Below, piece by piece: positions 16,236-20,001 of a stretch of DNA of 43,457 bases. The stretch lies in the sequence record JX865427; one strand, written 5' to 3'. How positions within the stretch are numbered: position 1 is the stretch's first letter; the number at the start of each line of letters is the position of its first letter. This stretch comes from Escherichia phage JL1. A program made the translations under genes and the position numbers. A model generated the notes under the pieces. The model did no database searches. It saw nothing but the letters and a program-made list of their open reading frames with translations, and was not told the origin of the DNA.

Positions 16236-16409
16236 ATGGTTGAAGAAAAACGTTGTAGTAATTGCGGTTGTGTTAAACCGCTATCCCAGTTCCACAAATA
16301 CACCGGAAAGACGGCGCGTAGCCCAGACGGGTATCGGGCCGAGTGCAAATCGTGCCGAAATAAAAAAGAGCGTGAACGGCAGCGCCGCTACCGTGCCGCG
16401 CAAGCATAA
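16236..16409 (+). CDS. small zinc-ribbon protein (hypothetical)
   Basis: 57 aa with CxxC...CxxC and basic C-terminus; GAGGA RBS. Confidence 0.45.
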   Translation: MVEEKRCSNCGCVKPLSQFHKYTGKTARSPDGYRAECKSCRNKKERERQRRYRAAQA

Positions 16410-16411
16410 TT

Positions 16412-16437
16412 AATACGGCGGGCTTGTCCCGCCATTT
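16412..16437 (+). terminator. putative terminator/attenuator
   Basis: Stem ggcggg / cccgcc followed by ATTTTT. Confidence 0.4.
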
Positions 16438-16452
16438 TTGGGAGACATGACG

Positions 16453-16671
16453 ATGAAAGAACACTACCGACTAACCACACTGGGCGAATGCAAACCAGGC
16501 GATCGAGTATGGTTTATCGCGGGCATGAATAACCCGCTGCCGTTAACGGTGTGCTGGCAAAAATTTAAGAGCTTCCGGGCGACCGGCGTGCACATCGGAC
16601 ACGCCACCAACTACGACGCCACAAAAAGGAACTGGAACAGTGAGACAGAAGTCTGGAAAAAGGCGGAATAA
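16453..16671 (+). CDS. hypothetical protein
   Basis: GGAG RBS 8 nt upstream of ATG at 16453 (alternative ATG at 16447). Confidence 0.45.
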   Translation: MKEHYRLTTLGECKPGDRVWFIAGMNNPLPLTVCWQKFKSFRATGVHIGHATNYDATKRNWNSETEVWKKAE

Positions 16672-16675
16672 AGAT

Positions 16676-18100
16676 ATGGCACGATTCCGACGCCGCGAAT
16701 ATCAGAAGTTGATAACCGCGTTCATCCTCAAGCATAAGCGATGCAATATATGGGCGACAATGGGGTCGGGTAAAACTGGCGCGACCATGTGGGCGCTGAA
16801 TAAAATGTTCCAGACCGGCATCCTGTCCCACCAGGAGGACCGCGTACTGGTGCTGGCCCCTCTACGCGTTGCATCCGGCACATGGCCCCCGGAACAGGAA
16901 AAATGGCGCTTCCCCGCCTTGCTGGTAGTAGATGGCACTGGGTCGGAGAAGGACCGCATCGCTGCGCTTGAGAGCGACGCTAACGTGGTTTGTATTAACT
17001 ATGATGTAGTTGAGTGGCTCGTCGAGTATTGCGGCGACGAGTGGCCCTTTACGGTCGTGGTTGCCGATGAATCGACTAAGCTGAAAGGCTATCGAAGCAA
17101 GCAGGGAAGTAAGCGCGCCCGTGCGCTGGCAGCGATCGCACATAAGCACGTCAAGCGCTGGATTAACCTGACCGGCACACCCGCGCCAAACGGGCTGAAA
17201 GACCTATGGGGCCAGACGTGGTTTGTCGACGGGGGCGAACGCCTCGGCAGTAGTTATAAGGCATTCACGGATCGCTGGTTTATTAGCAAGCCTGTTAAGC
17301 CTGGCAGCTTCACTATGCAGCACGCCCCGCTTAAGAACTCCGAGAAAGAAATCCAACAACGCCTGTCCGACGTGTCGCTAACAGTTGACGCGGCTGAATA
17401 CTTCGGGTGTGACAAGCCAATCTACACGCCGGTTGTAGTGGACCTGCCGAAGAAAGCCCGCAAGATTTATGACCAGTTCGAAGCGGAGCTATTTGCGGAA
17501 CTGGAAAGCGGAACAGTGGAGGCGGCTAACGCTGCGTCGAAGACTATTAAGTGCCTTCAGCTTGCTTCCGGGGCAGTGTATAAAGTCGACGAAGACGGCG
17601 AGCGCACCGACGAATGGGTGAAAATCCACGACGCTAAACTGGACGCGCTGGAAAGTATCGTGGAGGAGTTGAACGGCGCACCGTTGCTCGTCGCATACCA
17701 ATATAAGCATGATCTGGCGCGTCTCAAGAAGAAATTCCCGCACGGAGTAGCGATGGGTAAGGGTACGCAAGGAAATAAGGATATGGAAGCGTGGAACAGG
17801 GGTGAGATCCCCATCATGTTCGCACACCCGGCATCGGCGGGTCACGGCCTTAACTTGCAGGATGGCGGACACCACCTTGCTATTTTTTCAGACACCTGGA
17901 ACTATGAGCACTTTGCGCAGATCGTGGAGCGTATCGGGCCAGTTCGCCAGATGCAAGCCGGACACCCTCGTCCAGTATTCGTCTACATTATCCAGGCGCG
18001 CGGCACGCTGGATGAACTGGTCGCCGAGCGTCGTGACAGTAAGCGAGACATTCAGGACGATTTAATGGAATACATGAAAGCTAAAAAGGCGCGCAAATGA
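16676..18100 (+). CDS. SNF2-family helicase
   Basis: Walker A MGSGKTGA, motif II VVADEST, SNF2 signature LTGTPAPNGLKDLW; start set at internal ATG (MARFRRR). Confidence 0.85.
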   Translation: MARFRRREYQKLITAFILKHKRCNIWATMGSGKTGATMWALNKMFQTGILSHQEDRVLVLAPLRVASGTWPPEQEKWRFPALLVVDGTGSEKDRIAALESDANVVCINYDVVEWLVEYCGDEWPFTVVVADESTKLKGYRSKQGSKRARALAAIAHKHVKRWINLTGTPAPNGLKDLWGQTWFVDGGERLGSSYKAFTDRWFISKPVKPGSFTMQHAPLKNSEKEIQQRLSDVSLTVDAAEYFGCDKPIYTPVVVDLPKKARKIYDQFEAELFAELESGTVEAANAASKTIKCLQLASGAVYKVDEDGERTDEWVKIHDAKLDALESIVEELNGAPLLVAYQYKHDLARLKKKFPHGVAMGKGTQGNKDMEAWNRGEIPIMFAHPASAGHGLNLQDGGHHLAIFSDTWNYEHFAQIVERIGPVRQMQAGHPRPVFVYIIQARGTLDELVAERRDSKRDIQDDLMEYMKAKKARK

Positions 18101-18792
18101 TTATCTGGTCATTATTTGACGGCAGCGGCTTGATGATTGAACGTGCTGCCGAGATGGGGCATAAGTGTTATTGCTTCAACTACTCCGAAGCCGATCACGG
18201 GTCGTACCTGGACTACCGGATTTATGGGCGCGGTATCCGATATCGTAATGAGTTTATCGATCTGGACTTCGTGGACCGCGCGATGAATGGTGATTTCGGC
18301 ACGCCGGATATCATTTATGCATTCCCGCCGTGTACGGATCTGGCGGTGAGTGGCGCGCCCGCTTTCCCGCGCAAACGCGCCCGCGACCCTGCCTTCCAGC
18401 TTAAGGCGGTGCGCACCGCGAAGATTGCAGCTTACCTGGGTGATTTCTTTGAAGTGCCGTATATGATTGAGAATCCGCGCAGCGTGCTCTCCACTCAATG
18501 GCGTAAGCCGGACCACTCGTTTGACCCGTGGGAGTATGGCGGATATCTGCCGGAGGGTGACGTACACCCGCTCTTCCCGGAATACATCAACGCCCGCGAT
18601 TCATATCCGAAGCTGACCTGCTTATGGACCGGCAACGGCTTCCGTATGCCAGAGAAAAAGCCGGTATTCGTTGAAAAAGGGTACTCGAAGCAGTATAGTC
18701 GCCTCGGAGGCAAATCTGCCCGCACCAAATTAATCAGGTCGCTCACCCCGCGCGGCTTCGCGATAGCGGTTAACGAGGAAAATTTAAAATGA
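18097..18792 (+). CDS. compact DNA (cytosine-5) methyltransferase-like protein
   Basis: 231 aa; motif I LFDGSG, motif IV FPPCTDLAVSG (Pro-Cys), motif VI ENP; very short region where a target-recognition domain would sit. Confidence 0.6.
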   Translation: MIIWSLFDGSGLMIERAAEMGHKCYCFNYSEADHGSYLDYRIYGRGIRYRNEFIDLDFVDRAMNGDFGTPDIIYAFPPCTDLAVSGAPAFPRKRARDPAFQLKAVRTAKIAAYLGDFFEVPYMIENPRSVLSTQWRKPDHSFDPWEYGGYLPEGDVHPLFPEYINARDSYPKLTCLWTGNGFRMPEKKPVFVEKGYSKQYSRLGGKSARTKLIRSLTPRGFAIAVNEENLK

Positions 18793-19112
18793 ATACTGCA
18801 TTCGACGCCATCGACTTTTCAGTGGCAATGACCAATCAGCTTTTTTCCTACGACAGCAAAACAGGCGTTATCCGCCTAAAGTCCACCGGCTGCAAGATTG
18901 GCAACCTCAATACTGCCGATGGCGGTACTCGTATCGAATGCAACGGCAAGACGCTGTCTGGCGCACGTGTGGCGTGGATTATTGAGACTGGCAATACAAT
19001 CCCCCCAGGCTTTGCCGTTGTGTGCCGTCAGCGTACGCCGGGCCATTACGGCAACCGGATCAGCAATCTTTATTTGGTAGACGTAGCGCGCGACCCAAAT
19101 TTTTATTCGTAA
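18789..19112 (+). CDS. HNH_3-like putative endonuclease/DNA-binding protein
   Basis: FSYDSKTGVIRLK, ARVAWIIETGNTIPPGF and GHYGNRISNLYLV resemble phage HNH_3/NUMOD-type proteins; catalytic residues uncertain. Confidence 0.45.
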   Translation: MNTAFDAIDFSVAMTNQLFSYDSKTGVIRLKSTGCKIGNLNTADGGTRIECNGKTLSGARVAWIIETGNTIPPGFAVVCRQRTPGHYGNRISNLYLVDVARDPNFYS

Positions 19113-19117
19113 ATTGG

Positions 19118-19146
19118 TTGCATAACCGTATTGGTTGCATTATATT
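19118..19146 (+). promoter_or_regulatory. promoter TTGCAT-17-TATATT with tandem ATTGGTTGCAT motifs
   Basis: Two direct copies of ATTGGTTGCAT, one forming the -35 and one abutting the -10. Confidence 0.55.
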
Positions 19147-19193
19147 GAGGGTGTCCAGTTTGGACGCCCTTTTTAATACCCGGAGACAACACG

Positions 19194-19529
19194 ATGAAAA
19201 TTTTACAAGAAGAGAAAAATTACTGGGCCGCACAATGCCTCGAAGCCCGCGAGCAGGCCGAACGAGCTAACGCGTTGGCGGACACCAACCAGGCGCTATA
19301 TGAAGGAGAGAAGAAAGTGCGCCAGGAGCTAGAGGAGCGCTTCGAACTGCTGTTCGAATTGATGGGGATTATGCAGCGCACCGGATACACCACCAGCGTT
19401 GCACTAAACCGCATCACTGCCGACGGGCTGCGTGAGCATTGCAAACGGGCCGAGGAGTACGTGCGTCCGAAGGGCCGCCAGTCTAAGATTGCCCTGTACG
19501 CGATAGACCCAGATCATGCAGAAGAGTGA
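19194..19529 (+). CDS. hypothetical protein (coiled-coil-like)
   Basis: 111-aa charged helical sequence. Confidence 0.5.
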   Translation: MKILQEEKNYWAAQCLEAREQAERANALADTNQALYEGEKKVRQELEERFELLFELMGIMQRTGYTTSVALNRITADGLREHCKRAEEYVRPKGRQSKIALYAIDPDHAEE

Positions 19530-20001
19530 GCAAAAAGATAGCTGGCGCACGCCGCCAGCTTTATTCAAACCGCTTCGTCGGAAGTACCGATTCCGTTACG
19601 ACATGGCGGCGAGCGACGCCAACCATCTGCTACCTCGTTACTTCACGGCAGAGCACAGCGCGCTTGAGGTGGACTGGTCAGAGTTGAAAGGGTGGAAGTG
19701 GTGCAACCCGCCGTATTCCGATCCGCTGCCGTGGGTCGAGTGCGCAGCGCATGGACGTCGGACCGTCATGCTACTAAATCAGGACACGTCGACAAAGTGG
19801 GCACGGTTGGCCCGGAAGACTGCAAACCTGATAATTCTTCTGGACTGGCGTATCAGATTTATACACGCTGTAACCGGTGAAGTCGGGCCGAGCAATAACA
19901 AGTGCCAGCAATTGATAATCTTTGACGAAGCGCCACCCACCGGCAGCGCACAAATTGAAATAATGAGCGAGGGAGAACTACGTGAATATCTTAATCGTTG
20001 A
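19516..20001 (+). CDS. phage-type DNA N6-adenine methyltransferase (Dam-like)
   Basis: N-terminal WRTPPALF and catalytic NPPY motif (WKWCNPPYSD). Confidence 0.85.
   Translation: MQKSEQKDSWRTPPALFKPLRRKYRFRYDMAASDANHLLPRYFTAEHSALEVDWSELKGWKWCNPPYSDPLPWVECAAHGRRTVMLLNQDTSTKWARLARKTANLIILLDWRIRFIHAVTGEVGPSNNKCQQLIIFDEAPPTGSAQIEIMSEGELREYLNR

Follow-up and report, generated by a model that had tools for sequence, protein, structure and literature searches.

Among relatives of the gene considered here, activity has been reported for the 'dcm' gene of phage K42. The gene itself lies in Escherichia phage JL1 DNA (JX865427; 43,457 nt, the whole of which is the window and supplies all coordinates) and encodes a 231-amino-acid (aa) protein, which is most probably a C5-cytosine DNA methyltransferase (C5-MTase). 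A 107-aa HNH-like protein is encoded directly downstream of it, and the relation between the two is the second subject of this analysis.

K42 is a strain of KarlJaspers, with 95.4% genome identity to Bas06 according to the authors. All four of the K42 mutants that escaped retron Ec86 had mutations affecting a 711-bp 'dcm' gene: one deletion, one frameshift and, in two mutants, a single-base change 9 bp upstream of the dcm start codon (Wang et al., bioRxiv 10.1101/2023.08.16.553469). When dcm was expressed alone it was toxic only in Ec86-carrying cells, and its expression led to more 5-methylcytosine (5mC) on the multicopy single-stranded DNA (msDNA), as found by LC-MS (mass spectrometry coupled to liquid chromatography). 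The C82A/E128A/K175A/K176A protein was inactive, the four residues having been mutated only together (10.1101/2023.08.16.553469). Later papers take the K42 Dcm/retron Ec86 result as established. A second described system is CmoX, a phage C5-carboxymethyltransferase of canonical size (crystallised chain of 372 aa) whose donor is carboxy-S-adenosylmethionine (Cx-SAM) and whose gene is accompanied by one for a phage CmoA. Its hallmarks are an SPPC motif, an Arg (R350) at the HhaI N304 position and the phage CmoA nearby (PMC12783734).

How does the JL1 gene compare? The 711-bp gene was located in KarlJaspers (MZ501090) as bas06_0055, and the JL1 protein aligns with it over the full length at 53% identity (E=1e-85). 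Family and architecture are alike (236 versus 231 aa), and both are stand-alone genes amid DNA-metabolism and small early-type phage genes. Of the four positions changed in the inactive K42 protein, three keep their residue, Cys79, Glu125 and Lys172 corresponding to C82, E128 and K175. K42/KarlJaspers belongs to the Drexlerviridae, however, whereas the phage here is a Dhillonvirus, and the gene downstream of the KarlJaspers methyltransferase is unrelated to the 107-aa protein. Formation of 5mC and retron triggering have been reported for the K42 homologue, whereas the Dhillonvirus copy is known by sequence. By homology, then, the 231-aa gene is part of a family in which one member has been shown to form 5mC.

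The explanation that we consider likely is that the 231-aa open reading frame (ORF) represents a stand-alone, S-adenosylmethionine (AdoMet)-dependent compact phage 'Dcm-like' C5-MTase, and that the 107-aa protein is a lineage-specific, functional derivative of an HNH_3 protein that has lost its catalytic dyad and is not a nuclease partner. The two genes are:

18097-18792, plus strand: putative compact C5-cytosine DNA methyltransferase, 231 aa, ATG start (PHROG 757, 'Dcm-like')
18789-19112, plus strand: HNH_3/NUMOD-type protein, apparently without the catalytic Asp-His, 107 aa, ATG start (under purifying selection, narrow distribution)

A large family of compact methyltransferases

The 231-aa protein matches PHROG 757 ('DNA methyltransferase') at E=2e-82 over residues 1-229. 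A large protein collection holds 2,675 homologues, nearly all of 226-252 aa, and the ratio of nonsynonymous to synonymous substitution rates (dN/dS) within the genus is 0.02-0.06. The ORF is thus not a chance one. Clustered at 50% identity, the matches at E<=0.001 come to 1,990 representatives. By tblastn, 1,510 phage records match, and these include Escherichia, Klebsiella, Salmonella, Shigella, Vibrio, Campylobacter-labelled and Arthrobacter phages. Members of the compact 'Dcm-like' family are of about 210-260 aa, and the JL1 protein fits this range and is similar over its full length. As the phage family is very large and its members are like-sized, a length of 231 aa is normal for the family and does not set this gene apart. 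The original prediction had called the protein unusually small. This is so relative to canonical C5-MTases, but not within its own phage family, where 226-252 aa is typical. An enzyme of about 230 aa is among the smallest C5-MTases.

Conservation was assessed in 69 diverse family members, of which two match PF00145 at E<=0.01. Four relatives that are 62-63% identical to the JL1 protein pass the PF00145 gathering score (22.8-28.5 bits, gathering score 22), and this in motifs I-IV only; in relative P0019 (28.5 bits), residues 5-104 correspond to profile positions 4-92 of 324. Because the family is captured neither by PF00145 nor by any NCBIfam model, many records call the gene a 'hypothetical protein'. 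Pfam and NCBIfam all but miss a family that occurs in more than 1,500 phage genomes and for which no structure has been solved.

Dhillonvirus records label the gene 'putative DNA cytosine methyltransferase C5', 'Dcm' or 'Dcm-like C5 cytosine methyltransferase'; the JL1 protein is 99.6% identical to Henu5_1 Gp47, which carries the first of these labels. The gene is therefore already annotated in GenBank and its family, with an experimentally studied member, is already known. The finding is thus a minor addition, since a member that triggers retron Ec86/Eco1 has already given the family its place in phage defence.

Motifs and missing segments

The following elements can be recognized in the 231-aa protein:

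18112-18129, plus strand: motif I, LFDGSG, residues 6-11, putative AdoMet-binding glycine loop after strand beta-1 (the region in relatives aligns to PF00145)
18322-18354, plus strand: motif IV, FPPCTDLAVSG, residues 76-86, with the predicted catalytic nucleophile Cys79 (C82 of K42 Dcm)
18469-18477, plus strand: motif VI, ENP, residues 125-127 (E125 invariant; E128 of K42 Dcm)
18604-18618, plus strand: putative motif VIII position, YPKLT, residues 170-174 (Lys172 and Thr174 replace QxRxR; K172 is K175 of K42 Dcm)
18628-18735, plus strand: residues 178-213, about 36 residues, the sole segment at the place of a target recognition domain (TRD) (conserved P185 and LGGKSxxTK, 203-211)
18736-18771, plus strand: RSLTPRGFAIAV, residues 214-225, start of the last helix, resembling motif IX (RxLTxRE)

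LFDGSG, FPPCTDLAVSG and ENP, on which the original prediction had been built, are all present at the positions given for them. The F7-D-G-S-G11 loop comes after a predicted strand at residues 2-6 and has the FxGxG form that motif I requires. Cys79, Glu125, Pro127, Pro144, Tyr170, Trp177 and Pro185 are invariant (69 of 69 members), and Phe76, Pro77, Asn126, Lys172, Thr174, Arg214, Pro218 and Gly220 are conserved in at least 90%.

Spacing is normal through motif VIII, with 72 residues from I to IV, 46 from IV to VI and 47 from VI to VIII. Assignment of YPKLT to motif VIII is a tentative one, made from this spacing and from a predicted strand at residues 174-179, and residues 214-225 may similarly be regarded as motif IX-like. 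The distance from Thr174 at the motif VIII position to Arg214 of RSLTPRG is 40 residues, as against 107 in M.HhaI (R165-R272), which argues that the 231-aa protein has no separate recognition domain. After Arg214 there are 17 residues, as against 55 after motif IX of M.HhaI, and motifs IX and X thus cannot both exist as separate elements. The earlier proposal of a C5-MTase-type protein that leaves hardly any space for a TRD is borne out by the shortened distance and by a predicted fold that matches C5-MTases.

Predicted fold and mechanism

The predicted fold of the 231-aa protein is confident (predicted local distance difference test, pLDDT, 91) and its best matches are C5-methyltransferases, with DNMT3A/B on top. 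The structure-match scores are:

DNMT3B: 13.9 (186 residues aligned)
Prophage methyltransferase 3g7u: 12.4
CmoX 8yf3: 12.4
DNMT3A: 12.3
M.HhaI: 11.5
M.HaeIII: 10.9

An independent search with Foldseek gave DNMT3-family chains at all of places 1-44 (best E 1.6e-6). DNMT3A and DNMT3B are the closest solved structures, but their sequence identity to the 231-aa protein is only about 13-16%, and the DNMT3 catalytic domain is of about 285 aa and forms a dimer or tetramer with partner subunits. M.HhaI, a PF00145 enzyme, carries QxRxR where the JL1 protein has KxT, and the latter is below the Pfam threshold. Likeness to E. coli Dcm and M.EcoRII consists of the annotation name, the expected 5mC chemistry and motifs of PC and ENV type. 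E. coli Dcm, however, has 472 aa and a large TRD, its QHRER and GNSV lying about 157 residues apart, and the 231-aa protein is without such a TRD.

How might the enzyme work? From C5-MTase chemistry and the conserved residues, Cys79 would attack C6 of a flipped-out cytosine and Glu125 of the ENP motif would hold the flipped base. Lys172 and Thr174 may stand in for the canonical motif VIII arginines, and the FDGSG loop would bind AdoMet. With no separate recognition domain, we infer that the DNA sequence is read by conserved loops of the catalytic domain, namely residues 135-170 (WRKP...YGGYLP...RDxYPK) and 178-213 (LGGKSxxTK), in the manner of DNMT3A/B. The role of the enzyme would be to pre-methylate phage DNA against cytosine-sensitive restriction, and the cost would be that it becomes a liability where 5mC-sensing defences exist.

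Several results weigh against assignment of the protein as a C5-MTase of Dcm-like type. The 231-aa protein has no Pfam match even at E<=1 and no NCBIfam match, and searches of PDB chains with its sequence and two family profiles gave no methyltransferase match. Comparison of the family profile with E. coli Dcm by hhalign is non-significant (E=0.2, 25 columns around motif IV). As only motif IV is found, 'Dcm-like' is a label and not evidence of a common specificity. The comparison with M.HhaI (a sequence identical to PDB 10mh_A) is likewise non-significant (E=0.3) and covers the motif IV-VI region only; in it PPC stands opposite FPCQ with C81, and ENP opposite ENV 119-121, and because the alignment ends there, sequence comparison does not place the C-terminal half relative to motifs IX and X. 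The canonical QxRxR of motif VIII is not present, its position reading Y170-P-K-L-T174 with no RxR, and the protein has neither a separate TRD nor motifs IX and X as two separate elements. K176 of K42 Dcm is Leu173 here, at a position that varies within the Dhillonvirus clade. No activity report was found for any Dhillonvirus copy. CCWGG is neutral in the whole window (156 observed versus 159 expected), a count that allows no conclusion on specificity. Finally, in the K42 work the dcm+ MG1655 control showed low 5mC on msDNA, whereas the K42 phage enzyme raised it (10.1101/2023.08.16.553469), and the low level in the control fits poorly with a plain Dcm-like specificity.

Sequence specificity

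Does the family recognize CCWGG? For K42 Dcm this site was assumed from mutagenesis of CCTGG in the msDNA, where a change of either C abolished defence, and it was not mapped (10.1101/2023.08.16.553469). The literature yielded no relevant Drexlerviridae or Dhillonvirus methylome data and no direct mapping of the recognition sequence of the family, and nothing relevant on SECphi18 and cytosine methyltransferase or on small TRD-less phage C5-MTases.

An active C5-MTase with a site other than CCWGG, very short or degenerate (2-4 bp) as in DNMT3 (CpG) or CmoX (GC), is a rather improbable alternative, and would amount to the relaxed specificity that the original prediction had suggested. The segment of only about 36-40 residues at the TRD place is consistent with it, as are the DNMT3A/B folds as nearest neighbours and the fact that no likeness to E. 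coli Dcm could be detected outside motif IV. The low msDNA 5mC of the dcm+ control, the rise with the phage enzyme and the fact that CCWGG was assumed point in the same direction. The effect of changing either C of the msDNA CCTGG argues against a short site, however. Strongly conserved non-catalytic segments (WRKP, YGGYLP, LGGKSxxTK) also suggest a defined DNA interface. In addition, family members are found in phages isolated on wild-type K-12 MG1655, a McrBC+ strain. McrBC of K-12 MG1655 cleaves at purine-5mC sites, and dense methylation of that type should therefore be penalised on this host.

A broader combination, which we hold to be rather doubtful, would join several of these elements. 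The TRD-less family would read a short or unusual non-CCWGG motif through catalytic-domain loops, possibly as a DNMT3-like dimer; in Dhillonviruses the 107-aa protein, a dead HNH_3 derivative, would modulate targeting; and the repeated natural knock-outs of the methyltransferase would be traces of a continuing contest with defences that sense 5mC, for example Retron-Eco1 or type IV restriction.

Several palindromes are strongly avoided in the whole window (observed/expected: GGCGCC 0/19, GCCGGC 1/21, AAGCTT 0/14, GGGCCC 0/13 and CAGCTG 0/12). GATC is only mildly avoided (170 versus 207 expected).

Broken methyltransferase alleles in wild Dhillonviruses

Several independent broken alleles of the methyltransferase were observed, including proteins P0004, P0010, P0018 and P0108; there are four in-frame internal deletions and one 10-bp frameshift. 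Shigella phage 1b (L009:2489-2674) retains a 61-aa in-frame remnant of the methyltransferase, and the 107-aa-type gene downstream is intact. A metagenomic contig (L010, 1262-1947) has the 10-bp frameshift before Cys79, again with an intact downstream gene. P0010 on contig L011 (1501-1998) represents an in-frame internal deletion with an intact 107-aa gene downstream, and P0004 and P0108 are two further in-frame-deleted proteins. The downstream gene is intact, at 105-107 aa, in three of three broken-allele loci (L009, L010 and L011). In these same loci, which are those examined for gene context, the natural stop and the ATGA junction with the next gene are also kept.

A methyltransferase that is a liability under 5mC-sensing defences would explain such alleles in wild Dhillonviruses. 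The alleles would fit selection against the methyltransferase by these defences, although metagenomic contigs may carry assembly artefacts. As natural loss-of-function alleles, they can be used to ask if 5mC-sensing defences select against the methyltransferase.

Could the Dhillonvirus copy itself be catalytically dead, a methyltransferase-like protein kept for DNA binding or another role? Leucine at the position of K42 K176 would be in keeping with this, as would Asn28, found in the Dhillonvirus clade where at least 90% of the 69 diverse members carry Asp. Asn28, however, is also found in KarlJaspers, whose protein is a homologue of active K42 Dcm. Cys79, Glu125 and the FDGSG loop are intact, dN/dS is 0.02-0.06, and recurrent natural knock-outs are to be expected if methyltransferase activity is costly. 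The pseudoenzyme was rejected on these grounds and we regard it as very unlikely.

The original prediction had also raised the possibility of a C5-MTase fold repurposed for another base modification, for example one that transfers a carboxymethyl group from Cx-SAM, the product of E. coli CmoA, as CmoX does. The candidate for an Arg at the HhaI N304/CmoX R350 position would be Arg219; DNMT3A, an ordinary methyltransferase, also has an Arg in motif X (GRSW). The 231-aa protein has FPPC where CmoX has SPPC. With 5mC as the product detected by LC-MS for the K42 homologue, and DNMT3 as a better structural match (DNMT3B 13.9 versus 12.4 for CmoX 8yf3), transfer of a non-methyl group is highly improbable and was rejected.

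The 107-aa HNH-like protein

Dhillonvirus records label the 107-aa gene 'HNH endonuclease' or 'putative homing endonuclease'. The HNH_3/NUMOD likeness that had been predicted from the sequence proved to be real but weak. On the one hand, the protein matches PHROG 99 ('HNH endonuclease') at E=2.5e-16. On the other hand, it scores 13.1 bits against Pfam HNH_3 (PF13392), under the cut-off of 24.8, and the match (residues 60-77, profile positions 5-21 of 46) ends short of the catalytic core.

PVP-SE1 gp012, an HNH_3 protein of homing type (PF13392 E=5e-10), served as reference, although at only 23% identity its alignment with the 107-aa protein is not firm. The two have in common N-terminal NUMOD-like strands, the conserved Trp63 and Asn93-Leu94 of the HNH core. 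N93-L94 is invariant in the 107-aa family and aligned with N-L of gp012, so that the structural Asn of HNH proteins is kept; the protein terminates 14 residues past Asn93. Where gp012 has its Asp-His dyad, however, the 107-aa protein has a gap or a replacement: V-D-H of gp012 falls in a 3-residue gap of the alignment, and the family reads VVCRQ, TLRQ or RCID. The 107-aa protein is thus probably not a nuclease but an HNH_3-derived protein whose dyad has been lost.

Purifying selection nevertheless indicates a working protein, the dN/dS of 0.05-0.06 being comparable to that of the helicase and Dam genes of the region. Distribution is narrow. There are 160 phage records, about 156 of Dhillonvirus type (some under other host names) and four of Edwardsiella eiAU type, and only about 10 protein clusters, the profile search included. 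Sequence and profile searches of the PDB gave chance matches only, and AlphaFold2 gave no confident model (pLDDT 41.7, from a 5-sequence alignment).

The SSL-2009a copy (L006:3650-3985) has a C-terminus that differs from about residue 73 on, by an apparent frameshift, and the HNH-like core is lost. The cause might be a mistake in the sequencing of this old record; otherwise the copy would be a sign that the HNH-like part is dispensable.

Is there a methylase-nuclease pair?

The stop codon TGA of the methyltransferase gene (18790-18792) overlaps the ATG of the 107-aa ORF (18789-18791) as ATGA. The overlap reported earlier is thereby confirmed at 18789-18792, and it had led to the proposal of a methylase that guards against a partner nuclease. 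The two proteins could be a functional pair in either of two ways: the methylase guards the phage from its own nuclease, or the 107-aa protein provides the TRD-less enzyme with its DNA recognition. The ATGA overlap is kept across Dhillonvirus and both genes are under purifying selection, as a pair would predict. The eiAU homologue of the 107-aa protein also adjoins a C5-MTase, though one of a different family.

The distributions do not agree with a pair, however. Phage records with the methyltransferase outnumber those with the 107-aa protein about 10-fold (1,510 versus 160), and in KarlJaspers, PVP-SE1, VSe103, ukendt and GH-K3 the genes that adjoin the methyltransferase bear no relation to that of the 107-aa protein. 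K42 Dcm, expressed from a plasmid, is active by itself. By the alignment with gp012 the 107-aa protein has no catalytic Asp-His, and its gene is intact beside destroyed methyltransferase alleles, a state that would not be expected if it encoded an active nuclease with no methylase to guard against it. A functional pair is therefore hardly probable, and the restriction-modification-like arrangement was rejected on distribution, neighbours, the missing Asp-His and the intact 107-aa gene beside broken methyltransferases.

In eiAU-183 (L008:2360-3835) the 107-aa homologue lies between a helicase and a canonical 330-aa PF00145 C5-MTase, which is followed by Dam. This C5-MTase is likewise in the helicase-to-Dam region, but it belongs to another family and flanks the HNH-like gene on the opposite side. 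We read the arrangement as an inherited gene order in which the methyltransferase was replaced.

The surrounding locus

Neighbouring elements are:

16676-18100, plus strand: SNF2-family DNA helicase (PF00176 E=2.5e-11; PHROG 62 E=1e-157)
19147-19174, plus strand: 11-bp hairpin followed by a T run (hairpin 19147-19171; z = -2.3)
19516-20001, plus strand: Dam-type N6-adenine methyltransferase, 161 aa, the second methyltransferase of the phage (PF05869 E=2.9e-35)

Some 150 Dhillonvirus genomes, SSL-2009a, Henu5_1, YD-2008.s and BASEL phages among them, match the 3.4-kb region at 92-96% nucleotide identity, which places the phage, an E. coli siphovirus, in Dhillonvirus. The longest helicase ORF begins at a GTG at 16640; relatives annotate a protein of 474 aa, which corresponds to the ATG at 16676. 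The helicase stop codon (18098-18100) overlaps the methyltransferase ATG, again as ATGA, at 18097-18100. With such an overlap at both junctions, the chain is one of three genes (helicase, methyltransferase and 107-aa protein) and not two. The overlaps reflect tight operon packing and, probably, translational coupling.

The hairpin and T run at 19147-19174 look like an intrinsic terminator that closes the unit of three genes. A simple terminator scan of 16300-19600 did not call the hairpin at 19147. Over that same interval promoter-like sites were about as frequent as in shuffled sequence, and terminator-like sites numbered 9 versus 4.2 expected. Positions 19113-19123 and 19130-19140 carry the two copies of an 11-bp direct repeat, ATTGGTTGCAT. 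The two copies together form a promoter-like TTGCAT-17 nt-TATATT just upstream of the hairpin; a consensus scan did not call this promoter-like element.

Further downstream, a 111-aa ORF at 19194-19529 matches PHROG 10530 ('DNA ligase') at E=1e-66 and has no Pfam domain. The 'DNA ligase' label has been copied into RefSeq, but it looks unreliable, as the protein is without a Pfam domain and is far too small.

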